Part shown: piece after piece, positions 11,607-57,225 of the stretch
Position numbering within the stretch: the stretch's first letter is position 1
How the letters are laid out: each line of letters starts with the position of its first letter
DNA from: an uncultured Aquimarina sp.
Lineage (GTDB): Bacteria; Bacteroidota; Bacteroidia; Flavobacteriales; Flavobacteriaceae
DNA: 64,000 nucleotides
Reading direction: 5' to 3'
Assembly (NCBI GenBank): GCA_947498785.1
Contig: CANMLS010000005.1
Span: forward strand, 150,951-214,950
Translations under genes and position numbers: made by a program
Notes under the pieces: generated by a model
Databases searched by the model: none
What the model saw: only the letters and a program-made list of their open reading frames with translations
Told to the model about the DNA's origin: nothing

Positions 11607-12131
11607 ATGTGTATCAGTAAACCTGGCCAATGGTATGTGCTATATGTAAAAGCGCGTCATGAACGAAAAATAGAAAGCCTGTTGAAAGAAAATCAGATAG
11701 AGACATTTTTACCATTAGTTAAAACAGTTCGAAAATGGAGTGATCGAAAAAAAGAGATAGAAGCACCTTTATTTCCCTCTTATGTTTTTGTGAAAATTAA
11801 TTTAAAGAAAGATGCACATAAAGTTTTATCAGTTAGATCCTATTGCTTTTTTATTCGTTTCGGAGATGAATTTGCTAAAGTACAGGAAAGAGAAATAGAC
11901 TCGATTAAACATCTTATAAAAATGAATGTTCCTCTAAAAGTAGAAAATTATACACCGTCAGTAAAAGTAGGTGAACATAGAAAAATAAATAAAGGTGTAC
12001 TAAATGGTTTAAACTGCGAAATTCTTAAAGCTAATAATGAAAATAAAATCGTAGTATTCATTGATTCTATAAAACAAAATATTGTAGCAACAGTACCATC
12101 GTCTTACATTTCTGAAATGGTTGTTGTCTAA
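11607..12131 (+). CDS. NusG-paralog / UpxY-family transcription antitermination protein (NGN + KOW)
   Basis: NGN domain pattern WYVLYVKARHERKIESLLKENQIETFLPLV...RKW.DRKK.IE.PLFPSYVFVKI. C-terminal KOW-like VKVGEHRKINKGVLNGLNCEILK. It is the first gene of the co-directional cluster. Confidence 0.8.
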   Translation: MCISKPGQWYVLYVKARHERKIESLLKENQIETFLPLVKTVRKWSDRKKEIEAPLFPSYVFVKINLKKDAHKVLSVRSYCFFIRFGDEFAKVQEREIDSIKHLIKMNVPLKVENYTPSVKVGEHRKINKGVLNGLNCEILKANNENKIVVFIDSIKQNIVATVPSSYISEMVVV

Positions 12132-12557
12132 GTGAATTTTAATGATATAAAGGTTCAGAGAGTATAAAATTATTTGACTAATCTAGTAATCCAAGCTGGA
12201 TCGGTTGTCTAAATCTTTATGAGTTGATACTTTTTAAAATGTAACAAACTATATAGATTAACAAAACAGCAAACTTCATAACGTTGGGTAAAGCATTTAC
12301 TTCCTAATCTTATTACCCGAAGCATTTTTTAAGCATGTTTCAAGACAAAATTGCTTGAGGATATGGATGTATACTTTACTGTTTTTTTGAGAAAGTAAAG
12401 CTCAAAGGAACTCAAATGTCAGATACACAATAAAATTATATATAAAGTAGGTAAAAATCATTGGTTTTTACACTATCATCAATATAACTGCACAAACACT
12501 TTAACATATTATATCAGGATCATCAAACAGGGGTCTGATTATTAACTCTTTTTATTT

Positions 12558-13556
12558 ATGACTATGGAACTAATTGAAAAAATAAGTAAAATCGAAAAAT
12601 TTATTGGTAATACAAAAACTTACCAATTGGATTATGACCGTTCTAATCTTTTTGCAAAATTGGAATATGGAAGTTTTATGGGAAGTATAAAAGATCGACT
12701 TGCATTTTATACAGTAAGGCAAGCAATACTAGATGGTTATATAAATAAAGATACTACCGTTATAGAATCTTCTTCAGGAAATTTTGCAGTAGGTTTAGCT
12801 GGAATTTGTAAGTGTTTAGGACTTAAATTTATTGCAGTTGTAGATCCTAACATTACAGAAGAAAAAGAAAAACATCTTTCTTTTTTAGCACATGAAACTA
12901 TTAAAGTTCAGAAAAGAGATCAATATGATTCTTATTTACTTACCAGAATCGAATTGATTAACAAAATCCTAAAAGAGAATGATAATTATTTTAATATCAA
13001 TCAGTATAAGAATGTTAATAACTATTTGTGCTACTACAATACAATGGCAAATGAAATCATTAGGGATTTCAAAAGACTAGATTATCTTTTTATAGCTGTA
13101 AGCACAGGGGGTACAGTAACAGGGTTATCATTAAAATTGAAAGAGCATTATCCAAACATTAAGATAGTTGCTGTAGATATAGAAGGGTCAATCATATTTA
13201 GTGATGTGGTTAAAAAGAGGATTATTTCAGGAATGGGAGCGAGTAGAAAGAGCAATTTTATAGAGAAAGGAAAGCTAGATGAAGCAATTATTCTTCCTCA
13301 AGATGAGATCATGCAGGGATGTCTTGATTTGCTGAAAGAGCAAATGGTATTTGCTGGAGGATCCTCTGGGGCGGTATACGTAGCGGCCAAAAAATTACTG
13401 GAGAAAGAAAATAATTCTGATTTGAACGCCTTAATTATATGCCCCGATAGAGGACATGCTTATATAGATAGTATTTATAAAAGAATAGATAACAAAACCC
13501 TTGAAAAACAAAAAGAGTTTTCTGAACCACAACTAGAATACGAGTCATTAGTATAA
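12558..13556 (+). CDS. sbnA: PLP-dependent SbnA-like enzyme (first step of L-2,3-diaminopropionate synthesis)
   Basis: Cysteine-synthase fold with the PLP lysine in FMGSIKDR. ESSSGNFAVGLA, YLLTRIE...NQYKN and VSTGGTVTG track S. aureus SbnA as I recall it. It is paired with an SbnB-like gene. Confidence 0.8.
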   Translation: MTMELIEKISKIEKFIGNTKTYQLDYDRSNLFAKLEYGSFMGSIKDRLAFYTVRQAILDGYINKDTTVIESSSGNFAVGLAGICKCLGLKFIAVVDPNITEEKEKHLSFLAHETIKVQKRDQYDSYLLTRIELINKILKENDNYFNINQYKNVNNYLCYYNTMANEIIRDFKRLDYLFIAVSTGGTVTGLSLKLKEHYPNIKIVAVDIEGSIIFSDVVKKRIISGMGASRKSNFIEKGKLDEAIILPQDEIMQGCLDLLKEQMVFAGGSSGAVYVAAKKLLEKENNSDLNALIICPDRGHAYIDSIYKRIDNKTLEKQKEFSEPQLEYESLV

Positions 13557-13603
13557 AAAGTATTAAAAGAAAATAAAAGATAACCTATCAATATTATAGT
13601 ATA

Positions 13604-14563
13604 ATGATTTACTTAAACGAAAAAGATTTGTTTACAATTGGACTTAACTGGAAAGAATTTACAGAAACAATCAGAGAAGGAGTACGTTGTTTACATCAAG
13701 GAGAAAGTGTACAGCCAATCAAACCATATTTAAGGTTTAAAGACATCAAAAATAGAATTATTGCTATGCCTGCATATCTAGGTAATAATTTTGATGTAGC
13801 CGGAATTAAATGGATAGCAAGCTTTCCTGATAATATCAAAAAAAATAAAGCAAGAGCAAATTGTGTTACCATCTTAAATCATGCAGATACTGGAGAACCA
13901 ATCTGTATTATTAATACCCAACTTATTAGTGTATTAAGAACAACTACAGTAAGTAGACTAATGATCGAAGAGTATTGTTCTTTGAAGAAAATACAAAACC
14001 CTAAAATTGGAATTATAGGGTTTGGACCAATAGGAAAGTATCATTTAGCAATGTGCCAGGACTATTTTAAAGATGACAATGCAGAGTTTTTTATTTATGA
14101 TCTTAATGGAGTACACCCGAAAGATATAGAGATGTACGATAATGTAACCGTTGTTGATAATTGGTATAGTGCATATAAAGATGCAGATGTTTTTATGACA
14201 TGTACAGTTTCTAACGAAAGGTATATTGATAAAAAACCAAAAGAAAACTCACTACACTTGAATGTTTCATTAAGAGATTATAAAACAGAACAGATTGAAT
14301 ATTTTAAAGATGGTATAATAGTAGATAAGTGGAAAGAGATTTGCAGAGAAAATACAGATATCGAAGCTATGCATAAAGAGCGTAATCTCGTTGAAGCTGA
14401 TGTGAAATCTATAGAAGATGTTGTAATCAATAAATGTTTAAAAAATATGATAGATAAAACGGCTATTCTATTTAATCCTATGGGAATGGCAATTTTTGAT
14501 ATAGCTCTAGGACATTATTTCTACAATAAATCAAAAGAACTAGAGGTAGGAGCAGTTTTATAA
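13604..14563 (+). CDS. sbnB: Ornithine cyclodeaminase/mu-crystallin family SbnB-like NAD-dependent dehydrogenase (second step of L-Dap synthesis)
   Basis: VQPIKPYLRF...NRIIAMPAYLG...AGIKWIASFPDN, the Rossmann motif IGIIGFGPIGK, and LFNPMGMAIFDIA match the SbnB pattern (QPLKPYLR...RIIAMPS..GIKWI...LLNPMGMAIEDI). Confidence 0.8.
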   Translation: MIYLNEKDLFTIGLNWKEFTETIREGVRCLHQGESVQPIKPYLRFKDIKNRIIAMPAYLGNNFDVAGIKWIASFPDNIKKNKARANCVTILNHADTGEPICIINTQLISVLRTTTVSRLMIEEYCSLKKIQNPKIGIIGFGPIGKYHLAMCQDYFKDDNAEFFIYDLNGVHPKDIEMYDNVTVVDNWYSAYKDADVFMTCTVSNERYIDKKPKENSLHLNVSLRDYKTEQIEYFKDGIIVDKWKEICRENTDIEAMHKERNLVEADVKSIEDVVINKCLKNMIDKTAILFNPMGMAIFDIALGHYFYNKSKELEVGAVL

Positions 14564-14819: not shown

Positions 14820-16208
14820 ATGAGCTCACTTAAAAAATATCATTTATCAGAAACATCAAAAATAGTTTCATCTTCTGTACCAGGAGAAAAATCAAAATTT
14901 TTATTAGATCTGCAAAAAGACATAGAAAGTAGTGTGGTTTCATATCCTATAAGTATGCCTATTGCTATAAAAAGGGCTAAAGGAAGTATTATCGAAGATG
15001 TTGATGGAAATCAATTTATAGATTTTTTTAGTGGATGTGGTGTTTTAAATGTAGGACATAGTAATGATTTTGTTTTAGAATATGTAAAAAAACAACAATC
15101 AGAATTAATTCATGCCTTAGATTTTCCTACAGAAAATAAGCTTTTGTTAATTAAAAAAATAATTAGTCATTTACCAGAAAATATTAGAAATGATTATAAA
15201 GTAAGTTTTGGTGGCCCGACAGGTTCTGATGCTGTTGAAGCGGCAATAAAGTTAGCAAAAATCAAAACGGGAAGAGATGGTATAATTGCTTTTACAGGAG
15301 GTTACCATGGGATGACTTCTGGTGCTTTGGCTGTGACTTCTGATACCTTTTTCAGAAATAATTTAACATCCCTGATGCCTAATGTTCATTTTGCACCTTA
15401 TAATTATCCATACAGAAGTACATCCAATACAACCCATGAGATAGATGGTATAGCTTACTTAAAAAATATACTTACAAACAGCCATTCAGGAATATCTAAA
15501 CCAGCTGCAATTCTTGTAGAACCCATTCAGGGAGAAGGAGGAAATATCGTACCAGAAGATGGCTATCTAGAAGAACTAGTAAGAATTGCCCATGAAAATG
15601 ATGTATTGGTCATATTTGATGAAGTACAGTGTGGTTTTTTTAGAACAGGTAGTTTTTTAGAATTTATGAATACAAATGCTGTACCCGATATTATCACTTT
15701 TTCTAAAGGTTTTGGTGGAATTGGGTTTCCAATTTCGGGATTAATTTATAAAAAAGAAGTTGAAGCCTGGGGGCCTGCAGCGCATATAGGAACTTTTAGA
15801 GGAAATCAGGTAAGTATAGCCGCAGCAAGAGGAGCCTTTGATTTTATTGAGACATATAATATAGAAGAGCATACTGTATTGATAGGTTCCTATTTATTAG
15901 AGAAATTAAAAGAATTGGAAGAAGAAAATCCATTTATAGGAGAAGTACGAGGAAGAGGAATGATGATTGGTGTAGAACTCGTAAAAGATAAAAAAACCAA
16001 GGAACCTTTTCCAGAATTCATGAAAAAATTCAGATCTCAATGCTTTCAAAGAGGTTTATTATTCGAAGTAGGAGGACATTATAATAATGTATTACGGCTG
16101 GTTCCTCCATTAGTTACTACATATAACATTGTAGACGAAGCAATAGCTATTATGAAAGAAGCTATAGCTGTTTGTATGGAAGAATATTTAGAACCTACTC
16201 TAGCTTAA
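14820..16208 (+). CDS. Class-III PLP aminotransferase, diaminobutyrate-2-oxoglutarate transaminase-like (EctB/PvdH-type)
   Basis: IESSVVSYPISMPIAIKRAKG resembles the EctB N-terminal ES.VRSY.R.FP motif. Other matches are GVLNVGHSN, FTGGYHG, FDEVQCGFFRTG and the PLP lysine in TFSKGFGG. Confidence 0.75.
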   Translation: MSSLKKYHLSETSKIVSSSVPGEKSKFLLDLQKDIESSVVSYPISMPIAIKRAKGSIIEDVDGNQFIDFFSGCGVLNVGHSNDFVLEYVKKQQSELIHALDFPTENKLLLIKKIISHLPENIRNDYKVSFGGPTGSDAVEAAIKLAKIKTGRDGIIAFTGGYHGMTSGALAVTSDTFFRNNLTSLMPNVHFAPYNYPYRSTSNTTHEIDGIAYLKNILTNSHSGISKPAAILVEPIQGEGGNIVPEDGYLEELVRIAHENDVLVIFDEVQCGFFRTGSFLEFMNTNAVPDIITFSKGFGGIGFPISGLIYKKEVEAWGPAAHIGTFRGNQVSIAAARGAFDFIETYNIEEHTVLIGSYLLEKLKELEEENPFIGEVRGRGMMIGVELVKDKKTKEPFPEFMKKFRSQCFQRGLLFEVGGHYNNVLRLVPPLVTTYNIVDEAIAIMKEAIAVCMEEYLEPTLA

Positions 16209-16229
16209 ATCCTAATAAAACAAATAATA

Positions 16230-17990
16230 ATGTCACTCATGAAATCGTCTGTTCCAGAAAGTATACCCATTGAAAAAACACTAATAGAAATATTTGAAGC
16301 ACACCTGAAGCGATCACCAAACAAAATTCTGTATAGATTCTTGGCAAATGGAGATGAAGAAAGCGATTCGAGAACGTATCAGGAATTATATAATAGAGCT
16401 CAAATTATAGCATCTCATATTTTAGAATATGTCAATCAGGGAGACCGTGTTCTATTATTGTTTCCCTCTGGACTAGATTTTACAGACGCTTTTTTTGGCT
16501 GCCTACTTGCAGGAGTTATTGCAGTTCCTGCTTTTCCTCCTCAAGGGAAGCGAAGAATAGGCAGATTAGAAAAAATAGTTTCAGATTGTAATGCTAGTCT
16601 TGTTTTAACCAAAGAAGGAATTTATGAAAAAACTAAGACATGGTTTGATTCAGAATTAGATTGGCTTAAAACAGATATTATAGGTAATCATATTGAGAGA
16701 AAACTACCTGTTATTAGCTCAGATACCATTGCTTTTTTACAATATACTTCTGGATCGACAGGAAACCCGAAAGGGGTAATTGTAGATCACTCTAATATAA
16801 TCCATAACAGCGAATTGTTTAAAAAATGTTTCCAAACAGATGCTAAATCTGTTGGAGTTTCATGGCTTCCGATATATCATGATATGGGATTAATAGGGAA
16901 CGTAATTCAAGCATTTTATGTTGGGTTTGAGCTTATTATAATGCCTCCAGTGGCATTTGTTCAAAAGCCAGTTAGGTGGTTAAAAGCATTTTCAAAATAT
17001 AGAGGAACGATTAGTTGCGGGCCAAATTTTGCATATGATTTATGTACAAACCAAATAAGAAACGAGGATTTAGAAGGAATAGATTTAAGTAGTTGGCGGG
17101 TAGCGATTAATGGATCAGAACCTATTCGTCCTGATACTTTTGAAAAGTTTGCTTTACGATTCGAAAAATACGGTATTCAAAAAAAAACCTTATTTCCTGG
17201 ATATGGACTAGCAGAGGTCACACTAACTGTAAGCGGATGTAAGTTTGATGGCTTTCCAGTAACGTTAGAACTAGAAAAGAAGAGTTTTAAAAATAAAGAG
17301 ATAAAAGTTCTAACATCTTCTCAAAGTCAAAATGACACGATACGATTAATGGGAAATGGACCTGTGATAGATGGTTTGATTGTGAAAATTGTAGATCCAA
17401 AAACAAAGAAGGTTTGTGATAAAAATCAGATAGGTGAGGTCTGGATCAGTGGAGCGAGTGTTGCAAAAGGATATTGGGAAAAAGAAGAGACTACAAAAGA
17501 AATTTTCCATGCATTTCCCAAGGATACTAAGGGAGTAGAAAATAAAGAAGAAGGTCCTTTTCTACGTACAGGAGATATGGGATTCCTTTATGATGGAGAA
17601 CTCTATATCTCTGGTCGTTTAAAGGAGATGATCATTTTTAATGGGGTTAATTATTATCCACAGGATTTAGAACGTACCGTACAATACTCTCATTCAGATC
17701 TACAAAACAATGCAGGAGTAGTATTCTGTACAAATATAGATGAACAAGAAAAGTTAATAGTAGTACAAGAAATTAAACGAACAAGTATACGAACGTACAA
17801 TCGAGAATCTTTAGTACAAAGTATTTGTCAATCCATATTAGAAGAACATGAACTACCAGTTTATAGTATTATTTTAATTAGTCCAGGGCGAGTATCCAAA
17901 ACTTCGAGTGGTAAAATTCAACGTTTAGCCACTAAGTTGGCCTATGAATCTGATACTCTCGATGGAGTAATTGATTCTTGGAAAAGAGGA
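16230..17990 (+). other. Fatty acyl-AMP ligase (FAAL) domain
   Basis: AMP-binding cores LQYTSGSTGNPKG, YGLAE, GDMGF and GRLKEMII, with a FAAL-style N-terminus (TLIEIFEAHLKRSPNKILYRFL). Approximate boundaries. Confidence 0.8.
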
Positions 17991-20900
17991 GTGGTTTTAG
18001 AAGGAGAACATATGCCGATTTCTGAACAAATGTTATATAAGAATAGTAATTATCTTATAACATGGCTTCAGGAACGTATTTCAGAAGAATTAAAACTAAC
18101 TCCTTCACAAATTCAGATACACAAACCTTTTGCAGAATTAGGAATGACTTCTTTACAAGGTATTCGATTATCGGGGTTATTGTCTGAATATTTAGATCGA
18201 GATATTTCTCCAACATTAATATATAGTTATTCAACTATAACTGATTTGGTAACCTATTTGTTAGAGGAAGAAAAAAGTGTTCTTGAGACTCATGAACAAA
18301 AAGATTTCTTAAAAAATGAGCCCATAGCTATTATAAGTATGGCATGTCGGTTCCCAGGAGCAGAGAATGTTCAAGAATTTTGGGAAAATCTAATATCTGC
18401 AAAAGATGCAATTAAAGAAGTTCCTAATGATAGATGGGATATAGACGAATTGCATGGAGATATTTTGGATGGACATAACATGAATACTCGTTGGGGAGGG
18501 TTTATAAACGATGTATCAGAATTCGATGCAGATTTTTTTGATATCACTCCGCAAGAGGCCAAAAAAATGGATCCTCAACAGCGTATACTATTAGAGTTAA
18601 GTTATCATTTATTAGAAAATTCTCGTAATGATTTAGAATCATTTAAAGGAACAAATACAGGTGTTTTTATTGGGATAAGCCAGAATAGCTATAATGATTT
18701 GATTAAAAGCAGCAAACAAGATAAGAATGTGTATTCGGGTTTAGGAAGTGCTTTAAGTATTGCCGCTAATCGGTTGTCTTATTATTATAATTTTAGTGGA
18801 CCCAGTATGGCTATAGATACAGCGTGTTCTTCTTCGTTGGTAGCTGTTGATACAGCAGTAGAAAAATTACGTAAAGGTAAGTGCGATATGGCAATTGCTG
18901 GAGGTGTTAACTTAATCATATCTCCAGAAATAACAATTGCTCTATCCCAAGCTGGAATGATGTCTACAGATGGTAGATGTAAAACATTTGATAGTAGTGC
19001 TAATGGATATGTTCGTAGTGAAGGTTGTGGATTAGTATTGTTAACTACTTTATCTAAAGCACAAAAAGGAGGTCACAATATATTGGGAGTAATAAAAGGT
19101 AGTGCTGTTAATCAAGATGGACATAGTAATGGATTATCAGCTCCCAATGGTTTGGCTCAGGAATCAGTCATGAAAAAAGCACTACAAGATGCTCAAGTCA
19201 CTCCAGAAACTATAAGCTACATAGAAACTCATGGTACAGGAACCTCACTTGGTGACCCTATAGAAGTAAGTTCAATAAACAAAGTTTATAATGTAAATCG
19301 TTCTAAAAAAGATCCGCTATACCTCGGAGCAGTTAAAGCCAATATAGGACATCTGGAATCTGCTTCAGGAATTGCGGGACTTATTAAAGCCGTATTTTGT
19401 TTACAGTATAAAAAAATTCCTGCCCAACTTCATTATAACAATCCCAACCCACATATTAACTGGGAAAATATGCCTGTAGCCATTTCCAGTAAAACTATGG
19501 AATGGAATGCTATTGAGGAAAATATGGTAAAAAGAGCAGGTGTTAGTTCTTTTGGTTTTGGAGGTACCAATGCCCACTTAATTCTTGAAGAAGCACCAGA
19601 AGTAACTAAAAAAGAATTAGAAGAAAGTAATTTATCACGAACGTTTCACTTAATTACAATATCAGCAAAAAAAGAAACAGCATTAGATCATCAGGTTGAT
19701 CGAATTCTTAAATATGTTGAAGAAAATCCTAAAATATCGTTAAGTGATTTAGCGTATAGTTTAGCCGTTACCAGAACACATTATAAAAATCGCTTGGGAA
19801 TTATCTGTAAAAACATAGATGATGTTAAAAACAAACTCAATTCGGAAAAACTAGTCATAAAGGATAATATTAAAAATAAAATAAAATTTAAAATAGCCTT
19901 TTTATTTACTGGTCAAGGTTCTCAATATATTAATATGGGTAAATCCTTATATTTTAATGAACCAGTCTTTAAAGAAGCTCTTGATCAATGTTCCTTCCTT
20001 TTAACCTCTTATCTAGAAGAAGATATATTAGAAATTTTGTTCTCTGAAGAGAGAAGTTCAAAAGCTGAATTATTAGATCAGACAGCATATACACAACCAG
20101 CGCTATTCTCATTAGGGTATGCATTATATAAATTATGGCAAAATTGGGGAGTACAGCCAGATGTAATATTGGGCCATAGTATTGGAGAAATTACAGCAGC
20201 TTGCATCGCAGGAGTTTTTACATTGGAAGAGGCTATTAAGTTAGTAGCGTCTAGAGGAAAACTAATGCAGGAACTTAAAGAAAAGGGTATGATGGTTTCT
20301 GTAAGATGTGATAAAGATGTGATTTCGAAATTTATTCATAAGTATGAAGGTAGGATATCCATAGCAGCAATTAATACTCCAAATCAAACAGTAATATCAG
20401 GATGTTCAAAGGCAATAAAAGAATTGCAGGAAGAACTGACTACAGAAGAAATAAAATACAAACAACTTAAGGTTTCAAATGCATTCCATTCACCCCTTAT
20501 GAAACCTATGCTATCATCATTTCTTGCCATTGTAAATACTATTGAATTTCAATCACCTACATATAAAATAATAAGTACTGTATCAGGAAAAGTGGCGGGA
20601 AAAGAAATCAGTACACCAGAGTATTGGGTTGATCATATAAGTGCCCCTGTTGATTTCTTACAGGCAATGACTTTTTTAAACAAAGAAGAAGAAGCAACCA
20701 TATTCATAGAATTGGGCCCGCACCCTGTATTGATACCCATGGGAATTCATTGTATAGAAGATAGTAATAGAATCCATTGGTTACCTTCTCTCAAAAAAGA
20801 AAAAAATGAAGAACAACAAATGATAGAAAGTTTAGGAAGATTGTATAACGCAGGTGGTCAGCTGAATTGGAACGGGTTTTATGCAAACAGAAATGTGAAT

Positions 20901-26138: not shown

Positions 26139-26148
26139 TTGTAAGCAA

Positions 26149-26330
26149 ATGAAAAATAATGTTTTTGATATTTTAAAAAGAGCAAATAAAGAAGGAATAA
26201 GAATAGAATTGACGAATAATTCTTTGAGTATAAAATCAGAAAATGAAAAGATTGATTCTGAATTGCTTAAGGATATAAAATCATACAAAACATCAATTGT
26301 TGATCATTTAAAGAAATACAAAAATGAATT
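26149..26330 (+). other. TubC-type N-terminal docking domain
   Basis: VFDILKRANKEGIRIELTNNSLSIKSENEKIDSELLKDIKSYKTSIVDHLKKY fits the L..L...G..L...G..L.......L...I...K..I...L pattern. Confidence 0.6.
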
Positions 26331-32613: not shown

Positions 32614-32623
32614 TTTTATTGAA

Positions 32624-32800
32624 ATGAGTAAAAAGATTCTAGACCTTTTAAAAAGATTACATAAAGAAGGAATTAAAATAGAGCTAGATCAAGGTTCCTT
32701 ATCTATAAAATCAAAACAAGATAGTATTGAATCGATATATCTTGAAGAAATAAAAACATATAAACAAGATATTATATCCTACCTAGAAAAACATCAAAGT
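32624..32800 (+). other. TubC-type N-terminal docking domain
   Basis: ILDLLKRLHKEGIKIELDQGSLSIKSKQDSIESIYLEEIKTYKQDIISYLEKH is clearly paralogous to the 26149 N-terminus. Confidence 0.6.
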
Positions 32801-46901: not shown

Positions 46902-47100
46902 ATGAAAAAAATAGAGGACTTTATTAGTCAATTGGCAATCTATGGTTTGTTTTTGAATGAAAAAAATGAGGAACTAACTTTAAAAAAACATAAAAATAAG
47001 TCAAATGTTAAGTTTTATGACCTAAAAGAAGATAAACTTAATATTATAGACTTTTTAAAAAATAATAAGGAAAGCCTAATCACATTTTTAAAGGAAGAAA
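46902..47100 (+). other. Divergent N-terminal docking region
   Basis: IEDFISQLAIYGLFLNEKNEELTLKK...IIDFLKNNKESLITFLKEE has the same overall pattern as the other two N-termini but is much more diverged. Confidence 0.4.
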
Positions 47101-50100: not shown

Positions 50101-53100
50101 CACTTCGTAAATCGCTAGAAATTGAGATTGCAATAAAAGATGTTTTTGTGCATTCCACGATTTCCGAATTAAAAAATCATCTAGATACAAGGTCAACAGG
50201 GGTAACATTACCGCCTTTGGTTAAGCAAGATATAAAAGGAAGAGTTCCTTTATCATTTAGTCAAGAACGTCTATGGTTTTTGGATCAACGTCAAGGAAGT
50301 ATAGAGTATCATATTCCAATTACATTGAATATACAAGGAGATCTAGATCTTTTTATTATAGAAGCATCTCTAAAAGAAATAGTAACTCGTCATGAAATTT
50401 TAAGAACCGTAATCAAATCTGAAGAAGGGGTAGGGCATCAGGAAGTACTTCCTGTAGAAAGCTGGAAGATGAATATAATTGAAGAAGTATCATCTATAGA
50501 AGAATTAGAAAAAGTGTTGTCCATATTTATAAATAAACCTTTTGATTTATCAAAAGACTATATGTGTCGAGCATGTATAATCAAAAAAGGGGAACAAGAG
50601 TATGTTCTGACAGTAGTTTTTCATCATATTTCTAGTGATGGTTGGTCAGAAGATATTTTAATTAATGAGCTAATAGAACTATATACTTCAAAAAAAGAAA
50701 ATCGTAATTCTAATTTAAAGACACTATCGTTACAATACAGAGATTATGCGATATGGCAGCGTAAATATCTTGAAGGAGAAATTTTAGAAGAACAATTATC
50801 CTATTGGAGCAATCAATTAGAAAATATAGCTCCATTAAGCTTGCCTACAGATTATGCGCGACCTGCTGCACAAAGTAATTTGGGAGCGGGCTTTTCTTTT
50901 GAACTGGATAAAAACTTAAGAGAATCACTGGTTGAAATTTGTGAAGGTAAAGAGGTTACTTTGTTTATGATATTATTGTCAGCATTTAAAATTCTTTTAT
51001 ACAAATATAGTGGGCAAAAGGATATATGCGTGGGTACTCCGGTAGCCAACAGAACACAAGTAGAGTTAGAAGGAATCATCGGTTTTTTTATCAATACTCT
51101 GGCAATTCGTAGTAATTTGGAAGGGAATCCTACTTTTATAAAATTTCTTAAAGAAGTTAAGAGAACTACATTAGAAGCTTATGATCATCAATCTGTTCCT
51201 TATGAAAAAGTAGTCGATAGTGTGATAGAAACACGTGATTTGAGTATGAATCCTTTATTTCAGGTGATGTTTGTGTTACAAAACACTCCAGAAGAAGAGG
51301 TAATGGAATTGGAAGATCTAAATTTATTTCCATATCCATATACCAATACAACTTCTAAATTTGATATGAAACTTACTGCAGAAGATCATAAAGACGGTAT
51401 ATCATTATGGTTAGAGTATAGTACAGATTTATTTAAAGAAGATACAGTACGTCAAATAGCGGTTCATTATAGAAAATTATTAGAAAGTATTGTTCATAAT
51501 CCAAATGAACATATATCGACTTTGTCTATGATATCAAATGATGAAAAACATCAACTTTTAGAAGGATTTAACACGAATAAGATTACATATTCTTTGGATA
51601 AAACAATTTTAGATTTATTTAAAGAACAAGTTGTGAAAACCCCTGATGTTATAGCTATTGTTTATGAAGGAGAAGAAATAACATATAATGCATTAGACGA
51701 AAAATCTAATCAAATAGCTCATTGCTTGTGCAATTATGGCATAGGTAGAGAAACATTAGTCGGTATTTGCCTAGATCGTTCTTTGGATACGATATTAGGA
51801 ATTTTGGGCGTGCTAAAAGCCGGAGGTGCCTATGTGCCGATAGATTCAGAATATCCCGATAAACGTATAGCTTATATTATAGAGGATGCTGGAATAAAGC
51901 TGGTTATAAGTACTACGCGTCATAAGAGTATTTTAGAAAAAATAAAAAATATAGAAGTTATTGAGCTTGATAATGACTATGAACTTATAGATAAAGAATC
52001 AGTTCAACCACTTACGAATTCTATATCCTTAAATGACTTAGCCTATGTAATTTATACTTCGGGTTCGACAGGGCAACCTAAAGGAGTAATGATCGAACAT
52101 ATCAATATACTAGATTATTTTCAAGGATTAATACAGACATTGAAAATTACAACAGCTTGTCAATATGGTTTAATGTCCACGACCTCGGCAGATCTAGGAA
52201 ATACAGTTTTATTTGGTTCTTTATTAACAGGAGGGACTTTACATACTTTTACTAAAAATACATTAAGAGATGCAACAGTTATCAATGATTATTTTAAAAG
52301 TCATTCTATTGATTTTATCAAAATTGTACCTTCTCATTGGCTTTCTTTAGAAACCGATGAAGGAGTTTTACTTCCTAAAAAAGCAATTATATTCGGAGGA
52401 AGTATTTTGAGTGTTGAAGTGCTTCAAAAAATAAAGAAAACATCAAAAAATATAGACATAATTAATCATTATGGCCCTACAGAGACAACTATTGGTAAAC
52501 TAATGCACAAAGTAGATATTAATAAAAATTACCTTAGTATACCTATAGGAAAACCGTTTTCAGATACCAAAGTTTATGTGCTGGGACAATATCAAGAGTT
52601 AGTCCCAATAGGAGTTGTTGGAGAGTTATGTATAAGTGGAGCAGGGTTAGCAAGAGGATATCTGAATCAAGAACAATTAACAAATCAAAAGTTTATAGAT
52701 CATCCGTTTATTAAAGGAGAAAAACTATATAAAACAGGAGATCTTGCCCAGTGGCTTCTCGATGGTACTATTAATTTTATAGGAAGAAAAGATGATCAGG
52801 TAAAGATTCGCGGGTATCGTATAGAATTGGGAGAGATAGAAACTGTATTATCTAGAGAGTTAGGAGTAAAAGATAGTTGTGTTTTGGTAAGAGATGGGGT
52901 TGGTGGAGATAAACAATTAGTTGGATATGTAGTTTCTGAAAACGAATTTGATGAACAAGAAATACAAAACTCATTAAGGTCAAAACTACCCGAATATATG
53001 GTTCCTCAATTATGGGTAAGGTTAGATGAAATGCCTTTGACCAATAATGGTAAAATCGATAAAAAATCCTTGCCAGATAGAGAAACATCTCAATTTTCAA

Positions 53101-54230
53101 AAATAACATATGTAGCTCCAAGAAATGAAATAGAGAAGCAGTTTGCAACAATTTGGCAAAATGTATTAGAGGTGGATAAAGTTGGAATAAATGATGATTT
53201 TTTTAGTTTGGGAGGGCATTCTTTACTCGCTATGAAATTAGTGATTCAAATGAATAAAATATCTGATAAAAATATAAGTATTCTAGATATTTTTGAGCAC
53301 CCTTCTATTGCAAAATTAAGTAAAAAACTACCTTCAGAAAATAATTTTGAAGATCAGGTTCTTATTGCTCTAAATGAAAAAGGGGATAAAAGGCCTATAT
53401 TTTGTGCTCCTTCAGGAATCGGAAACGCTCTTCCTTTTTACAATTTATACGAACTTCTAGGAGAACAACAACCTTTTTATGCTTTTCAATGTCCTGGAAT
53501 AGATGGAGAAACCCCTATTTTACAAACTGTTGAACAGATAGCATCTACTTTTATTATAGAAATGCAAAAGATTGACCCTTATGGCCCGTATTGCATTGGA
53601 GGATACTCGTTTGGAGGAAAAATAGCACTCGAGATGGCATTACAACTAGAAAATAAGGGATATGAAGTTAGTGAGCTGTTAATTTTTGATTCTGCTGTCA
53701 TTAATTATCCTCCTGCTTCTATACTTATACCAGAAGAAAATCTTGAAGAATTATTATCCGAAATAATTAGCTTTATTAATCAGGAGTTTGACGTGAATAT
53801 TTTGTTATCTCATTCAATATTAGAAGGTTTATGTCAAAAAGACCAGATAGAAGCAGTATATAAATTAATTGAGGAATTAAAATCACCTTTTGAAATAAAA
53901 ATGAAGGGAAGAGTTCAGGTATATATTAATAATTGTACCTGCAGTTATTACCCAGAAACAAATACAAAGTTAGATACTCAGATTATTTTATTTAGAAGTC
54001 AAGATAAATTGGATATTGATCGTACTTCTCTCACAGAAGAAAGTAGAGAAATATTTGATAAAGTATTGCAGACAAAAGAATTTGGATGGCAAGAATATAC
54101 TAATAAAAAAATTAAAGTATTCTCAATAGAAGCTAGTCATACAGAAATACTATCTCTTCCGCATGTTATAGAGATTAGTCAAAACTTAAAAGAAAACTTA
54201 AATATAGGACAAGGGATACTTATTGATTAA
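46902..54230 (+). CDS. NRPS, two modules plus thioesterase: docking-C(DCL-like)-A(Val-like)-T-C-A(Asp)-T-TE (2442 aa)
   Basis: Uninterrupted 7.3 kb ORF. Confidence 0.95.
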   Translation: MKKIEDFISQLAIYGLFLNEKNEELTLKKHKNKSNVKFYDLKEDKLNIIDFLKNNKESLITFLKEENKKGEEVEKINDKIYKLSPLQEGMLFHSLYDEDAKAYIVQLAVDFPQGVNVVILKAAWDYVLKNHSILRSAFFYKELSIPVQRVYNKIELPFEELDYSMHSGIELEEKVNSFLETDSQSGFSFAEPPLLRVTLIKTGKISSKMVFTNHHILFDGWSVPIILEELFAAYESMFKELEPPVKKKDEYEDYIKYIDSKDIVEEEIFWKNYIKNLEDPCLLPFSKAGLSRNKAIGDFKEVLLSIDSRFTEELKNYAQQNRLTVNTLIQGVWSLLLSKYTNNSSIVYGVTVSGRPAELENSEQRVGLYINTLPLYSRVEGEMLIIDWLLELQSGHAACRDHQYTSLSKIQKLKGIQGDLFDSILVFENYPISKTLSEGENILEVNNVVVKEQANYLLNIAVNLGEELGINFSYNASLLKDSTVKMILNHFRCALQQIIDPSTSKISEINILTENEKDEILYVFNKTKIDYTQNKTIIDVFEEQVQKTPDKIAIKYKGKDLTYKELNHKSNCLANYLLSNYDIKAEDLLGVKLERSELLICALLSILKTGAAYVPIDFNYPKERILFIQNDTNCRVIIDEDFLKEYNKKTHDDTSPKQVIFSNHLAYVMYTSGSTGKPKGTMIEHKSIVSLTKSCDYIPLNSQTKWLSTGSVSFDATTIEFWGTLLSGGTLIITDKNTLLDSDQLKDVIRKEKVNTLWMTASWFHQTVEEDLSVFENIKYLIVGGDKVIFKYTNKLLSSYPNIKITNGYGPTENTTFSTTFPIEEKVNKDLPIGKPVKDCQAYVYDESLSFLQPVGVAGELCLGGAGLARGYLHQESLTNEKFIPNPIVEEERLYRTGDIVKWLPEGNIEFLGRKDDQIKIRGYRIELGEINNLIQEITEISQSLVIAKEDDNQNKQLIAYVVYKKPLDKEFIKEYLRSKLPSYMIPQLWVELDVMPLTNNGKINIKALPDPEMSHLAKDYVAPRNETEEKLAIIWQDLLRVSKVGVYDNFFDLGGHSLLATRLVSALRKSLEIEIAIKDVFVHSTISELKNHLDTRSTGVTLPPLVKQDIKGRVPLSFSQERLWFLDQRQGSIEYHIPITLNIQGDLDLFIIEASLKEIVTRHEILRTVIKSEEGVGHQEVLPVESWKMNIIEEVSSIEELEKVLSIFINKPFDLSKDYMCRACIIKKGEQEYVLTVVFHHISSDGWSEDILINELIELYTSKKENRNSNLKTLSLQYRDYAIWQRKYLEGEILEEQLSYWSNQLENIAPLSLPTDYARPAAQSNLGAGFSFELDKNLRESLVEICEGKEVTLFMILLSAFKILLYKYSGQKDICVGTPVANRTQVELEGIIGFFINTLAIRSNLEGNPTFIKFLKEVKRTTLEAYDHQSVPYEKVVDSVIETRDLSMNPLFQVMFVLQNTPEEEVMELEDLNLFPYPYTNTTSKFDMKLTAEDHKDGISLWLEYSTDLFKEDTVRQIAVHYRKLLESIVHNPNEHISTLSMISNDEKHQLLEGFNTNKITYSLDKTILDLFKEQVVKTPDVIAIVYEGEEITYNALDEKSNQIAHCLCNYGIGRETLVGICLDRSLDTILGILGVLKAGGAYVPIDSEYPDKRIAYIIEDAGIKLVISTTRHKSILEKIKNIEVIELDNDYELIDKESVQPLTNSISLNDLAYVIYTSGSTGQPKGVMIEHINILDYFQGLIQTLKITTACQYGLMSTTSADLGNTVLFGSLLTGGTLHTFTKNTLRDATVINDYFKSHSIDFIKIVPSHWLSLETDEGVLLPKKAIIFGGSILSVEVLQKIKKTSKNIDIINHYGPTETTIGKLMHKVDINKNYLSIPIGKPFSDTKVYVLGQYQELVPIGVVGELCISGAGLARGYLNQEQLTNQKFIDHPFIKGEKLYKTGDLAQWLLDGTINFIGRKDDQVKIRGYRIELGEIETVLSRELGVKDSCVLVRDGVGGDKQLVGYVVSENEFDEQEIQNSLRSKLPEYMVPQLWVRLDEMPLTNNGKIDKKSLPDRETSQFSKITYVAPRNEIEKQFATIWQNVLEVDKVGINDDFFSLGGHSLLAMKLVIQMNKISDKNISILDIFEHPSIAKLSKKLPSENNFEDQVLIALNEKGDKRPIFCAPSGIGNALPFYNLYELLGEQQPFYAFQCPGIDGETPILQTVEQIASTFIIEMQKIDPYGPYCIGGYSFGGKIALEMALQLENKGYEVSELLIFDSAVINYPPASILIPEENLEELLSEIISFINQEFDVNILLSHSILEGLCQKDQIEAVYKLIEELKSPFEIKMKGRVQVYINNCTCSYYPETNTKLDTQIILFRSQDKLDIDRTSLTEESREIFDKVLQTKEFGWQEYTNKKIKVFSIEASHTEILSLPHVIEISQNLKENLNIGQGILID
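47139..50180 (+). other. NRPS module 8: C (LSPLQEGMLFH type, follows the E domain) - A code DAIWIGGTFK (Val-like) - T
   Basis: YKLSPLQEGMLFHS, NHHILFDGWS, SFDATTIE, TLWMTASW, LIVGGDK, NGYGPTENTTFS, and T-domain Ser codon 50073-50075. Confidence 0.8.
50244..53330 (+). other. NRPS module 9: C-A-T, A code DLTKIGHIGK (Asp-like)
   Basis: PLSFSQERLWFLDQR, HHISSDGWS, STTSADLGNTVLF, IKIVPSHW, IIFGGS, NHYGPTETTIGK, and T-domain Ser codon 53220-53222. Confidence 0.8.
53380..54230 (+). other. Type I thioesterase (TE) release domain, Ser codon 53607-53609
   Basis: PIFCAPSGIGNALPFYNL and GGYSFGG (GxSxG), followed by an alpha/beta-hydrolase-length tail with a late His (EASHTEIL). Confidence 0.8.
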
Positions 54231-54240
54231 TCTATAAAAC

Positions 54241-54271: not shown

Positions 54272-54354
54272 CGTCTATAGTTTTAAAAAATCAAAATTTA
54301 TAGAATTCGAATAATTGAGTTTACTAGGATAAATCACTCATAAATAAAAAAATA

Positions 54355-55626
54355 ATGAAAAAATATTATGTCTATCTAGGACTATTAATGTTTTCAATAT
54401 TCGGAACAGATTTAACAGATTTTGCACTAAGTGTCTGGATACTGGATCAACCAGAAGGAAGTATTGGTTTGTATTCTATGGTTTGGTTTTTTGAAGCCGC
54501 TCCAGCCATTTTTTTAGCTCCGATTATAGGAGGCTTTGTAGATAGATGGAACAAAAAAAAGATGATCATTTATGGCCAGCTAATAGCAGGATGTGGAAGC
54601 TTGACATTAATGACATTATATTATCTGGAAGAATTACATCCTTGGCATATTATGATAGTTGCAGGAATTGGATCTATTGCCAGCATGTTTGTGTTTAATT
54701 CATTTTATATATCAACAACAGCTTTGGTTCCAAAAAACAGATTAATAAATGCACAAGGAATCTCTAGTACAATACATTCTATGATTCAAATGGGAGTTCC
54801 TATACTTGCTCCTGTTTTATACAAACTTATAGGGCTTAAAAATATATTTTTTATCGATGCAATAACCTTTTTTGTATCGGTATTGGCCTTTACAGTCTTA
54901 AGTTTTGTTGTGGTTACCCAGTCTAAAGAAAAATTTAGTTTGAAAAAGGATTTTATGGTAATAAAAGAGTTTTTCAAACAAAAAAGAGGATTCACATATT
55001 TGTTTTCTTTTTTCTTTTTTATAAATTTTTTAATTGGTCTTGTTACCGTTTTACTTACTCCTTTGATTCTAGATTTTTCAAATGAATATGTTTTGGGAAT
55101 TGTACTTACCGTAGTAGGTTCGGGAAGTCTAATTGGTGGAATTATCATGAGTAATAAAAAAGGATTTAAAAAACCAATCCAGATGGTTATTTGGGCCAAT
55201 ATTGTTGTAGGTCTTATCCTTTGTAGTTTTTTTATTCAGGTTAATCCATACATTTTGGGAATAGGAGGGATGCTGATATTGGCAATGTTCTCGATATCTG
55301 GTATTGCCAATGATACATTTTTTCAAACTGTGGTTCCAGTAGATTTGTTAGGTAGACTAACAGGAGTCGGAACTTTAATTATAGGAGGCGCTGCGCCTAT
55401 AGCGTTTCTTTTATCAGGATTTGTTGTCGATAAACTTAGTAATATATTTAAGAATTTATCCCCACAAATCTTGAGTCGTTTTCCAGGAACCAGTACCACA
55501 ACATCTATTGTAATCGTATTCGCAATATCAGGAGTATTGCTAACTATAATTTCATTAGTGTATAGAAAAAATAAATCACTACAAGATCTTGATAGATTGT
55601 ATTTTACAGAATTAAATAAACATTAA
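54355..55626 (+). CDS. MFS transporter (EntS/MFS_3-like), probable product exporter
   Basis: Multi-pass hydrophobic protein. It carries the loop motif PIIGGFVDRWNKKKMI (G-x-x-x-D-R-x-x-R/K-K) typical of MFS loop 2-3. Confidence 0.8.
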   Translation: MKKYYVYLGLLMFSIFGTDLTDFALSVWILDQPEGSIGLYSMVWFFEAAPAIFLAPIIGGFVDRWNKKKMIIYGQLIAGCGSLTLMTLYYLEELHPWHIMIVAGIGSIASMFVFNSFYISTTALVPKNRLINAQGISSTIHSMIQMGVPILAPVLYKLIGLKNIFFIDAITFFVSVLAFTVLSFVVVTQSKEKFSLKKDFMVIKEFFKQKRGFTYLFSFFFFINFLIGLVTVLLTPLILDFSNEYVLGIVLTVVGSGSLIGGIIMSNKKGFKKPIQMVIWANIVVGLILCSFFIQVNPYILGIGGMLILAMFSISGIANDTFFQTVVPVDLLGRLTGVGTLIIGGAAPIAFLLSGFVVDKLSNIFKNLSPQILSRFPGTSTTTSIVIVFAISGVLLTIISLVYRKNKSLQDLDRLYFTELNKH

Positions 55627-55640
55627 TAAGATAGTTTATA

Positions 55641-56408
55641 ATGAATAAGATTTTAAGAAATAAAATAAAAATCATAGCAATACCTTTTGCAGGAGGTAAC
55701 AAGTATAGTTTTAAAAATATACCAGAATTTTTATCAAAAGATTTTGAATGGATAACTGTAGAACTTCCAGGTAGAGGAGCTAGGTTTAAAGAGAGATTAT
55801 TGGATGATATTTCAACAATGACACAAGATATTTTTGATCAGATAAATAAGCATATAAAAAATGAACCCTACCTTATTTATGGGCATAGTATGGGAACCTT
55901 ATTAGGTTATGAATTAACCAAAATGTTGATTGAAAATAACAAACAATTACCAGTTTGTTTATTTTTTACAGGAAGAGGTGCTCCGGGAGTAGCTTCTAAA
56001 AAGAAAATATCCTCGTTGCCAGAAGATTTGTTTTGGAAAGAAGTCAATGAGATGGGCGGACTTCCTAATGAAATATTAGAACATCAAGATCTTTTATCTC
56101 TATACTACCCAATTCTAAAATCTGATTTCGGAGCTATAGAGAATTATACATACAATAGGATCAAAGAACCATTATCTGTGCCTTTATTTGTTTGCATGGG
56201 AAAAGATGAAGTAGGACAGGGAAAAGGCAAAGTTTCTTTGGATAAAATTAAAAAATGGAATGAAGAAACAGCGTTTCCCCAAACAATACAATTCTTAGAA
56301 GGAGATCATTTTTTCATATTTAAACACCCAAAAGCGATTGCTCAAAGAATCAGTAGTGCATGTGAATCTGTATTAAACTCCAATTACACATTAGAACTTC
56401 ACTATTAA
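55641..56408 (+). CDS. Type II (editing) thioesterase
   Basis: IIAIPFAGGNKYSF and GHSMG, with a C-terminal GDHFF. The 255 aa length is typical. Confidence 0.85.
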   Translation: MNKILRNKIKIIAIPFAGGNKYSFKNIPEFLSKDFEWITVELPGRGARFKERLLDDISTMTQDIFDQINKHIKNEPYLIYGHSMGTLLGYELTKMLIENNKQLPVCLFFTGRGAPGVASKKKISSLPEDLFWKEVNEMGGLPNEILEHQDLLSLYYPILKSDFGAIENYTYNRIKEPLSVPLFVCMGKDEVGQGKGKVSLDKIKKWNEETAFPQTIQFLEGDHFFIFKHPKAIAQRISSACESVLNSNYTLELHY

Positions 56409-56478
56409 GGGTAAAAAAACAACAGAATTGGTTAAGAGGTAGTCTAACATACAAACTAACCATGATTGAGAATATATA

Positions 56479-57225
56479 ATGAATAAAGGTAAATTATTAT
56501 TAGAAAGGAAGACTTCTTTTTTTTCTGCGGGATTTTGCATCTGTAATGAAGAGTTATCAAACTTGGAAAAGAAAATGATTGTATTACATCAGGAGGAAAA
56601 GATGTATTATGAAACATTGAAAAATAATAGGAGAAAAAAAAGCTATCTTTTAGGAAGAATTTCAGCAAAAGTAGCAATATCAGAAATACTTGTTGTAAAA
56701 GTACCTTTATCTTCTATATTAATACAGAGCGGGATATTTCAGTTTCCAGTTGTGAAAAACATACAAAATCAAAATATACAAATTAGTATAAGTCATTGTG
56801 ATACTTATGGAATTACCCTTGCTTTTCCCGAAGAACACCCTTTGGGGATAGATATCGAAAAAATCAATGAAGACAAAATCGATATTATGAAAGATTACCT
56901 TTGTGTTGAGGAATTTCAAAAAATAACTACTTGTTCTCTAAGTATGACCATTGGAAGTACACTCATTTGGACAGTTAAAGAAGGATTGTCAAAAATATTA
57001 AAAACAGGGTTGACCGTAGATTTTAAAATACTTGAAATTGATTCCTTAACAAAAAAAGGAGATGTATACATAAGTTATTTTAAATATTTTGGTCAGTATA
57101 AAGCGATATCATACCATATAGGAGATTACATATGTTCTATTGTATTGCCAAAGAATACTTCGCTTGATTTAAATCTATTTTGGAATATTTTACAAAAACA
57201 ATACCATAGAGTAATATCTTCATAA
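56479..57225 (+). CDS. Sfp-type 4'-phosphopantetheinyl transferase
   Basis: RRKKSYLLGRISAKVA, ISISHCD, GIDIEKI and WTVKEGLSKILK (W/F-x-x-K-E-x-x-x-K). Confidence 0.8.
   Translation: MNKGKLLLERKTSFFSAGFCICNEELSNLEKKMIVLHQEEKMYYETLKNNRRKKSYLLGRISAKVAISEILVVKVPLSSILIQSGIFQFPVVKNIQNQNIQISISHCDTYGITLAFPEEHPLGIDIEKINEDKIDIMKDYLCVEEFQKITTCSLSMTIGSTLIWTVKEGLSKILKTGLTVDFKILEIDSLTKKGDVYISYFKYFGQYKAISYHIGDYICSIVLPKNTSLDLNLFWNILQKQYHRVISS

Follow-up and report, generated by a model that had tools for sequence, protein, structure and literature searches.

A pedopeptin B-type assembly line with a predicted beta-amino fatty acid start in an uncultured Aquimarina sp.

The window analysed here, a stretch of 64,000 nucleotides from an uncultured Aquimarina sp. 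(NCBI GenBank assembly GCA_947498785.1, contig CANMLS010000005.1, positions 150,951 to 214,950 of the forward strand), carries a row of eleven genes on the plus strand (11607-57225) that encode a hybrid polyketide synthase (PKS)/nonribosomal peptide synthetase (NRPS) system. We consider it quite probable that this cluster is an intact assembly line for a pedopeptin-type cationic lipo-nonapeptide with a 3-amino fatty acid. As read from the adenylation codes, the predicted peptide is that of pedopeptin B residue for residue, including the single D position and the Dap/Dab/Dap pattern of 2,3-diaminopropionate (Dap) and 2,4-diaminobutyrate (Dab), and because the codes equal the published pedopeptin B sequence, the peptide core would be that of a known family of antibiotics binding lipopolysaccharide (LPS). 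This match, like the one to the AQU3 sister family described below, was absent from an initial annotation of the same DNA. That annotation had itself named a high-similarity MIBiG match of identical domain order and predicted residues as the mark of a known compound family, and since the residues are the same, the peptide family is already known. What is new is confined to the beta-amino start and the lactam predicted from it: the 3-hydroxy lipid of the family would be replaced by a 3-amino lipid, since the relevant block of the first megasynthase (M1) differs from that of its closest relative.

Start module and peptide sequence

All eleven open reading frames (ORFs) lie where the initial annotation had placed them (Table 1). 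The four megasynthases comprise 3302 (M1), 2161 (M2), 4733 (M3) and 2442 (M4) amino acids, and their uninterrupted frames, annotated as ~38 kb, add up to 37.9 kb. The G+C content is ~32% throughout the window, and in such DNA ORFs of 2-4.7 thousand codons make chance no concern. Domains were assigned by a Pfam and phmmer parse with the cluster's own domains as queries, which reproduced the order previously read from core motifs: FAAL-ACP-KS-AT-ACP-AmT-C-A-T in M1, dock-C-A-T-C-A-T in M2, dock-C-A-T-C*-A-T-C-A-T-C-A-T-E in M3 and C-A-T-C-A-T-TE in M4. In total, this amounts to nine adenylation (A) domains and one ketosynthase/acyltransferase (KS/AT) pair, in agreement with one malonyl extension and nine NRPS modules. 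Of the three docking domains annotated at N-termini, those of M2 (31.7 bits) and M3 (38.4 bits) were supported as TubC-type at a cut-off of 26, whereas that of M4 was not (14.8 bits).

Within M1, FAAL (aa 48-577) is followed by an acyl carrier protein (ACP), KS (697-1069), AT (1224-1529), a second ACP (1608-1674), an aminotransferase domain (AmT, ~1792-2226), the first condensation domain (C1, 2252-2690), A1 (2713-3190) and a thiolation (T) domain (3220-3279). The top PDB matches of the first 600 residues are FAAL structures (7r7g, 3kxw and FadD32). The KS motifs DTACSS/HGTGT/GHLE hold the catalytic Cys/His/His, and the AT, present in cis, reads GHSIG...NAFHS, i.e., the malonyl type. The AmT matched that of the mycosubtilin synthase MycA (6kfm) over the whole domain (435 residues, E 4.5e-129), with its YGK aligned to the YGK of 6kfm, so that the pyridoxal phosphate (PLP) lysine is kept; glutamate-1-semialdehyde (GSA) aminomutases came second among the PDB matches (E 5e-55). 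By Pfam, there is no ketoreductase (KR), dehydratase (DH) or enoylreductase (ER) domain in M1 and no stand-alone reductase in the cluster, and in place of a C-starter M1 has the AmT-type start.

M1 thus contains the entire iturin-type initiation set, namely activating domain, ACP, KS, ACP, AmT and C in one protein without reductive domains, and the iturin/mycosubtilin-type lipo-initiation proposed by the initial annotation agrees with the structural matches of AmT and FAAL. Like M1, MycA of the iturin family combines fatty-acid activation, one malonyl extension and in-line transamination ahead of a C domain. MycA relies on the trans-acting FenF, whereas the AT of the window acts in cis. A FAAL and PKS/AmT start has also been described for the cyanobacterial puwainaphycins (PMC4219810). 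Going by its domains, M1 follows the iturin/puwainaphycin logic for a beta-amino fatty acyl starter, in which the AmT domain should turn the beta-ketoacyl-ACP into a beta-aminoacyl-ACP.

For the peptide, the nine A domains were aligned to the GrsA PheA segment, identical to 1AMU residues 233-526, and this alignment yielded the same residue order as the specificity codes earlier derived by hand. The codes read DIWQITADDK in A1 and A6 (Dap), DAWTIAAICK in A2 (Phe), DIWQLTADDK in A3 (Dab), DFWNIGMVHK in A4 (Thr), DAWYLGNVVK in A5 (Leu) and in A7 (D-Leu, an epimerisation (E) domain following), DAIWIGGTFK in A8 (Val) and DLTKIGHIGK in A9 (Asp), giving Dap-Phe-Dab-Thr-Leu-Dap-(D)Leu-Val-Asp over nine colinear modules. 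In the tables of Li et al., DIWQITADDK stands for Dap and DIWQLTADDK for Dab (PMC12677607, supplementary Tables S4, S9), and the pattern of A1 and A6 (Ile at position 299) versus A3 (Leu at position 299) parallels Dap1/Dab3/Dap6. Pedopeptin B is listed as L-Dap, L-Phe, L-Dab, L-Thr, L-Leu, L-Dap, D-Leu, L-Val, L-Asp (PMC12677607, Table S9), and the revised pedopeptin structure is cyclo[(R)-3-hydroxyalkanoyl-L-Dap-L-Phe-L-Dab-(E)-Dhb-L-Leu-L-Dap-D-Leu-L-Val/OHVal-L-Asp], with Dhb for dehydrobutyrine and OHVal for 3-hydroxyvaline (PMC7979671). Compared by its literature description, the Pedobacter system, i.e., pedopeptins A-C as LPS-binding cyclic lipodepsipeptides with an NRPS cluster in P. 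lusitanus NL19 / P. cryoconitis, has the same nonapeptide order, and with pedopeptin B the window shares the single D residue at position 7, L-Leu5, Val8 and the cationic character via Dap and Dab.

The stereochemistry is consistent with the domain types. As annotated, the only E domain of the cluster follows module 7 (motifs HHLVVDG and EGHGRE), and the C domain after it, C8 at the start of M4, carries the DCL signature LSPLQEGMLFH. The domains C2, C3, C4, C6, C7 and C9 share 49-61% mutual identity and the LCL signature; the LCL-type C domain after module 5 fits L-Leu5 as in the pedopeptins. The thioesterase (TE), likewise annotated at the end of the line, has the triad GYSFG + Asp + His.

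The remaining condensation domain, C* after the Thr module, stands apart with only 16-24% identity to the other C and E domains of the cluster. Its class was assigned from PDB-match scores relative to a control domain: the top match was the C domain of McyA2 (8jbr, 183 bits, E 7e-53), with 100 bits for the CmodAA domain of AmbE (7r9x) and 65 bits for TycC, whereas the LCL control C6 scored 288-309 bits with TycC/Txo (TycC 288) and only 90 bits with McyA2. C* keeps HHxxxDG as HHAILDG. The C domain of McyA2, which follows a Ser module whose residue becomes N-methyl-dehydroalanine (Mdha), is a founding CmodAA member; in this clade, the domains characterised so far act on the donor residue by dehydration and only then condense it (PMC10880069). 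The T domain upstream of C* carries GGDSI, as carriers working with epimerisation domains typically do, and the arrangement T(GGDSI)-C*(YPMSDI...HHAILDGWS)-A-T recurs, with a Leu-like A domain, in an NRPS fragment of Pedobacter cryoconitis. Because of the CmodAA matches, the position after Thr, the GGDSI carrier and the P. cryoconitis parallel, C* is best read as the predicted step from Thr to dehydrobutyrine, in keeping with the Dhb at position 4 of the pedopeptins. A dual E/C domain was considered and rejected, as the top matches are CmodAA domains and position 4 of the pedopeptins is Dhb.

A mosaic relation to the cluster of Aquimarina sp. Aq78

The closest gene cluster was found in Aquimarina sp. 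Aq78 (loci L083, L081), where the gene order is that of the window: UpxY, sbnA, sbnB, diaminobutyrate (DABA) transaminase, megasynthases, major facilitator superfamily (MFS) transporter and type II TE. Identity is 68-96% across the cluster, except for the AT-ACP-AmT-C block and module 5. Among the accessory proteins, it reaches 87% for UpxY, 91.5% for SbnA (WP_106793803.1 in Aq78), 96% for SbnB, 93.5% for the DABA transaminase, 88% for the MFS transporter and 82% for the type II TE. In the later modules, values are 82% (A6), 76% (C7), 79% (A7), 72% (E), 73% (C8), 78% (A8), 68% (C9), 68% (A9) and 72% (TE), and M4 as a whole is 72% identical to its counterpart P0253, which has equal length (2442 aa).

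The relation breaks down within the start module. Against the Aq78 protein P0013, M1 is 84% identical in FAAL, 65% in ACP1 and 79% in KS, then only 46% in AT, 29% in ACP2 and 25% in C, and again 84% in both A and T. KR domains are present in P0013 but missing from M1, and the reverse holds for AmT; AT-KR-ACP-C in Aq78 thus stands where the window has AT-ACP-AmT-C. The exchanged block is nearer to other flavobacterial AmT-type synthases (AT 54-58%, AmT 63-67%, C 41-50% identity). According to sliding identity and junction alignments, it starts directly after the C-terminal KS motif GTNAHLILEE and ends shortly ahead of LYEFNDTxTDYP, within the C-A linker. Fusions in the "exchange unit" engineering strategy are made in this linker as well. 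The boundaries that set the block apart from the KR-type relative are clean; as a variant of a known peptide family, the cluster is no surprise in kind.

Module 5 looks like a second replaced block, consisting of A-T and the next LCL-type C domain, because A5 is nearer to A7 of Aq78 (68%) than to whatever that cluster has in module 5. In the window itself, A5 and A7 are 71% identical and share the same code. In Aq78, a T-E end of one gene is followed by a DCL-type C domain opening the next, in agreement with the D-Phe5 of AQU3, whereas the window has Leu without an E domain, an LCL-type C6 and a fused gene.

The Aq78 cluster is treated here as AQU3-type, on the grounds of matching features and not of an accession. 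The AQU3 cluster of Aquimarina is deposited as GenBank PQ867815 (Li et al. Adv Sci 2025, PMC12677607). At eight of the nine positions, the codes of the window are also those listed for AQU3 (PMC12677607), the difference being module 5, which is Phe (predicted D-Phe) in AQU3 and Leu here. The readable Aq78 codes equal the AQU3 table as well (A1, A6 and A8; A7 and A9 with small alignment slips), and AQU3 shares with the window a PKS-type start with FAAL-ACP-KS. Li et al. modelled the AQU3 lipid as 3-hydroxyoctanoate and synthesised the predicted product chemically (PMC12677607), a model that fits a KR-type start.

For AQU2, a further cluster of the same study, the start appears to be of the AmT type, and the natural product may carry a 3-amino fatty acid instead of the plain acyl chain of the synthetic AQU2 peptides, which were N-acylated with tetradecanoic acid (PMC12677607). 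The published synthetic predictions for related Aquimarina clusters should, as this suggests, be checked at the start module. AQU2 is listed with a 1389-bp aminotransferase gene and a 9894-bp NRPS/PKS gene (PMC12677607, Fig. S4 table), and the best match of the latter is a hybrid synthase of Flavivirga jejuensis, which is of the AmT type in our search for M1 homologues.

At the DNA level, similarity to Aq78 runs from ~11209 to ~56377, where it ends inside the type II TE gene, the last gene common to both clusters; at the left end, blastn aligned 11209-12557 with L083 8664-10000 at 78% identity. To the left of 11209, nothing aligned to Aq78 even by tblastx, and the flanks share nothing on either side. 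The phosphopantetheinyl transferase (PPTase) at the same position in Aq78 (L081 19581-20240) is only 25% identical (248 vs 219 aa) and therefore replaced rather than orthologous. When the proteins of the window were looked up, including flanking housekeeping proteins, each was alone in its 90% cluster with the sole exception of SbnA, which clusters with Aq78. Unrelated flanks, together with accessory genes of 87-96% identity and no flanking 90% cluster mate, suggest that the cluster moved or was transferred. As to gene content, the window flanks encode type IX secretion system (T9SS) CBM6/Big_2 proteins, a KDG kinase, a KDPG aldolase and a BACON/T9SS protein, and those of Aq78 a MutS, a peptidase M19, a sulfatase-modifying enzyme and others.

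Among the data searched, only this genome was seen to join an AmT start to the pedopeptin peptide. The sequences of M1 and M4 were found on two contigs only, belonging to one genome. Full-length homologues of M1 (Aquimarina longa, A. muelleri, Flavivirga, Flavobacterium and others) reached no more than 50-54% identity, and those at this level all have an AmT and belong to different peptides. When metagenomes were scanned for the AmT-C1 block, hundreds of AmT-type synthases came up, the best full-length one at 39%, and no second copy of this variant. With T-C*-A-T as query, only proteins of < 2000 aa at <= 48% identity were obtained and the Aq78 orthologue was missed. A reference-genome scan with M3 alone gave no match, its patterns being too specific, so that the source genome and Aq78 were also missed. 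When the Dap/Dab A domains served as an aligned query, the same kind of scan led to generic NRPS loci, with a best identity of 57% and no Aquimarina among the matches listed; these included Tenacibaculum sp. MAR_2009_124 (57%) and Chitinophaga niastensis (PYAW01000004.1, 55%). For C. niastensis, a chitinopeptin-family cluster with a PKS-I start in place of the C-starter is on record. A literature search found no beta-amino-lipid peptide from Flavobacteriaceae and no aza-pedopeptin.

Predicted product and alternative readings

On the evidence of the domains, FAAL would adenylate a free fatty acid and load it onto ACP1, KS and the malonyl-type cis-AT would add two carbons to give a beta-ketoacyl-ACP2, and the in-line AmT would transaminate C3. 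C1 would then link the 3-aminoacyl chain to Dap, and eight more modules would add Phe, Dab, Thr, Leu, Dap, Leu, Val and Asp, with the Leu of module 7 epimerised to D and the Thr residue dehydrated to dehydrobutyrine by the CmodAA-type C*. The most likely product is accordingly predicted as 3-aminoacyl-Dap-Phe-Dab-Dhb-Leu-Dap-D-Leu-Val-Asp, released by the TE. In this step, the lipid 3-amino group would attack the thioester of Asp and close a macrolactam with 31 ring members, an aza counterpart to the macrolactone of pedopeptin B. By analogy to the pedopeptins, which close on the C3 hydroxyl, and the iturins, which close on the C3 amine, such a closure is probably the parsimonious outcome.

Several features distinguish this proposal from known systems. 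The pedopeptins have a C-starter, a 3-hydroxy fatty acid and a lactone, while the window has the FAAL-ACP-KS-AT-ACP-AmT start with a predicted 3-amino acid and lactam; with no KR and no C-starter, and with the AmT in place, the product should not be a depsipeptide. The cluster contains no 3-hydroxyvaline hydroxylase, and as nothing in it would hydroxylate Val, the Val (pedopeptin B) form is expected; moreover, the host belongs to marine Flavobacteriia, in contrast to the soil Sphingobacteriia of the pedopeptins. The iturins are neutral heptapeptides from another phylum, as opposed to nine residues and a cationic character here. The chitinopeptins of Chitinophaga (Bacteroidetes) include congeners with a 3-amino or a 3-hydroxy fatty acid as well as sbnA/sbnB Dap subclusters (PMC9248904), and in their gene-cluster family a PKS-I start replaces the C-starter in one species (PMC9248904); they differ in having 14-16 residues, iron chelation and heavy hydroxylation. 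Two product identities were rejected, namely a polymyxin-like product, as Dab codes and ring logic differ, and an iturin-family product, as the nine modules have specificities unrelated to the iturin heptapeptide (Asn/Tyr/Asn/Gln/Pro/Ser...).

The computed residue sum is 942.529 Da, which for cyclic lactams gives 1083.644 (C8), 1167.738 (C14) and 1195.769 (C16). The mass of 1.2-1.4 kDa expected in the initial annotation has therefore to be lowered to ~1.08-1.2 kDa. For a C9 lactone, the same arithmetic yields [M+2H]2+ 550.33, the ion reported for the (iso)pedopeptins, and this agreement supports the composition.

A number of observations weigh against the proposed aza-pedopeptin. The Dap and Dab code assignments of Li et al. 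are "in-house" and not biochemical. The supply enzymes stay below strict family cut-offs: the SbnA-like protein reaches 329.5 bits with TIGR03945, just below the equivalog cut-off of 350, the SbnB-like protein 280.9 bits with TIGR03944 (cut-off 327), and the top NCBIfam matches of the DABA transaminase, all of them DABA transaminase models, are likewise below theirs. The side-chain amines of Dap and Dab compete with the lipid 3-amine as ring-closing nucleophile. Chitinopeptins A/B carry a 3-amino lipid from a C-starter cluster without an in-line AmT (PMC9248904), and lipid chemistry is therefore not always read correctly from the start module. Finally, C1 has the motif NHIISDG in place of HHxxxDG, a rare variant that could lower its activity.

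Given the competing amines, the same assembly line could deliver a linear product by hydrolytic release, or a ring closed via a Dap or Dab side-chain amine as in the polymyxins, an outcome we regard as unlikely yet worth keeping in view. Three side-chain amines are on offer, the free 3-amine of a linear form would add a fourth positive charge, and the TE, at 72% identity to that of the KR-type (3-hydroxyacyl) Aq78 line, shows no obvious adaptation to an amine nucleophile; Li et al. also weighed several alternative cyclisation modes for AQU3. Against this, the pedopeptin ring takes in all nine residues and closes on the lipid C3, the iturins, with the same kind of start module, close on the 3-amine, and an amine is the better nucleophile at that position.

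It is less probable still that the macrolactam is missing because the recombinant is silent or crippled, i.e., that the foreign AT-ACP-AmT-C block or C1 is nonfunctional and no lipopeptide or only shunt products arise. Engineered chimeric junctions often lower flux, and the combination occurs in a single genome, on two contigs. The annotated integrity of the catalytic motifs held everywhere except in C1, whose first His is replaced by Asn: in the active-site motif of 115 homologous C domains, 112 have HH, two NH and one YH. However, the catalytic second His is kept in C1, and NH/YH variants are also present in other intact AmT-type synthases. The 38 kb of open frame are unbroken, the junctions fall at domain boundaries, and the shared parts have diverged to 68-84% amino acid identity without any frameshift, a pattern that speaks for purifying selection over a long time since the swap.

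A bypassed or differently acting AmT, leaving a 3-keto or trans-reduced 3-hydroxy lipid and thus pedopeptin B itself or a keto analogue, seems very improbable: the nearest cluster, of the AQU3 type, does use a KR and is modelled with a 3-hydroxy acid, and the peptide part of the window is that of pedopeptin B, but M1 lacks a KR, no stand-alone reductase is encoded in the cluster, the full-length AmT matches that of MycA over the whole domain at E 4.5e-129 with its lysine, and C1 belongs to the AmT-associated C lineage rather than to the lineage that follows KR-ACP.

Few natural lipopeptides act against carbapenem-resistant Gram-negative bacteria, and the pedopeptins and isopedopeptins, which work via LPS binding, belong to these few. 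Their ring is closed by an ester, and the change of such an ester to an amide is a standard medicinal-chemistry route to stability. The prediction that a marine flavobacterium makes an amide version of pedopeptin B with an unchanged peptide therefore names a concrete compound to seek or to synthesise. Moreover, the comparison to Aq78 displays a natural exchange between KR-type and AmT-type starts at residue resolution in a cluster that has stayed intact since, which is useful for engineering. The full proposal, namely a recombinant aza-pedopeptin with a hydrolysis-resistant macrolactam, made by a functional cluster, with anti-Gram-negative activity kept or improved and a natural template for KR/AmT exchange, is put forward tentatively, as a possibility somewhat short of even chances.

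Accessory genes and surroundings

The small genes were assigned with Pfam and NCBIfam, which agree with the accessory set of the initial annotation (a NusG-like regulator, an sbnA/sbnB-like pair, a class-III aminotransferase, an MFS transporter, a TE and a PPTase). The Bacteroidota context that it had noted is apparent from the UpxY antiterminator, whose 131.4 bits exceed the NF033644 cut-off of 100, and from T9SS-tailed neighbours. Together with the low G+C content and the relation to Aq78, these features suggest a marine flavobacterium, probably an Aquimarina. The SbnA/SbnB pair and the DABA transaminase fit a supply of Dap and Dab, respectively, as predicted from their families. As the stand-alone aminotransferase is 93.5% identical in the Aq78 cluster, which lacks an AmT, it is not tied to the formation of the beta-amino lipid. 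The MFS transporter is a probable exporter and means of self-protection. In the cell, UpxY would keep transcription going across the ~45 kb operon by antitermination, the product would leave via the MFS protein, and type II TE and PPTase would service the carrier domains.

Table 1. Coordinates of the cluster genes and of selected domains and regions in the window.
Feature	Position	Strand	Basis or content
Upstream non-coding region	11209..11606	+	Left end of DNA similarity to the Aq78 cluster
UpxY-family NusG-like transcription antiterminator	11607..12131	+	NF033644 antiterm_UpxY 131.4 bits; Pfam NusG E 1e-19
Conserved stretch of ~125 nt directly 5' of sbnA	12433..12557	+	Alignment with Aq78
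SbnA-like PLP enzyme, L-2,3-diaminopropionate supply step 1	12558..13556	+	Top NCBIfam TIGR03945 PLP_SbnA_fam
SbnB-like dehydrogenase, L-2,3-diaminopropionate supply step 2	13604..14563	+	Top NCBIfam TIGR03944 dehyd_SbnB_fam
Class-III aminotransferase, diaminobutyrate--2-oxoglutarate transaminase family	14820..16208	+	NF005393 425 bits; TIGR00709 385 bits
M1, hybrid PKS/NRPS lipo-initiation megasynthase	16230..26138	+	Pfam + phmmer parse
Swapped block in M1 (aa ~1130-2680)	19617..24269	+	KS-AT linker, AT, ACP, AmT, C1
In-line AmT domain	21603..22907	+	Top PDB match MycA AmT 6kfm
C1	22983..24299	+	Divergent LCL-like domain
M2	26128..32613	+	TubC_N dock, C-A(Phe)-T, C-A(Dab)-T; both C domains LCL type
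M3	32624..46825	+	TubC_N dock, C-A(Thr)-T, C*-A(Leu)-T, C-A(Dap)-T, C-A(Leu)-T-E
C*, CmodAA-type (dehydrating) condensation domain, predicted	35996..37453	+	PDB matches, position after Thr module
A5	37475..38845	+	
A7	43703..45073	+	
M4	46902..54230	+	DCL-type C-A(Val)-T, C-A(Asp)-T-TE
MFS transporter	54355..55626	+	Pfam MFS_1, MFS_3
Type II (editing) thioesterase	55641..56408	+	Pfam Thioesterase E 9e-33; motif GHSMG
Sfp/EntD-type phosphopantetheinyl transferase	56479..57225	+	Pfam ACPS 42 bits; top NCBIfam EntD

Upstream of the UpxY gene, the non-coding region shared with Aq78 probably contains its promoter/leader. Between UpxY and sbnA, the stretch adjoining sbnA is ~90% identical to Aq78 (L083 ~9880-10000), compared with ~60% in the remaining spacer, and could represent a candidate promoter or 5' leader and a possible target of the UpxY antiterminator. 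An Rfam scan of the whole window at gathering thresholds gave no match and thus no known leader RNA, and scans for sigma-70 promoters and terminators stayed below background with models ill-suited to Bacteroidota.

Further upstream, an 811-aa ORF on the minus strand (6728-9163) had no Pfam match at E <= 1e-4; the gene call is also present in the NCBI record. A divergently oriented GNAT acetyltransferase gene (10351-10875, minus strand) lies just outside the region common to Aq78 and is no part of the conserved cluster; its product could acetylate amines for self-protection.

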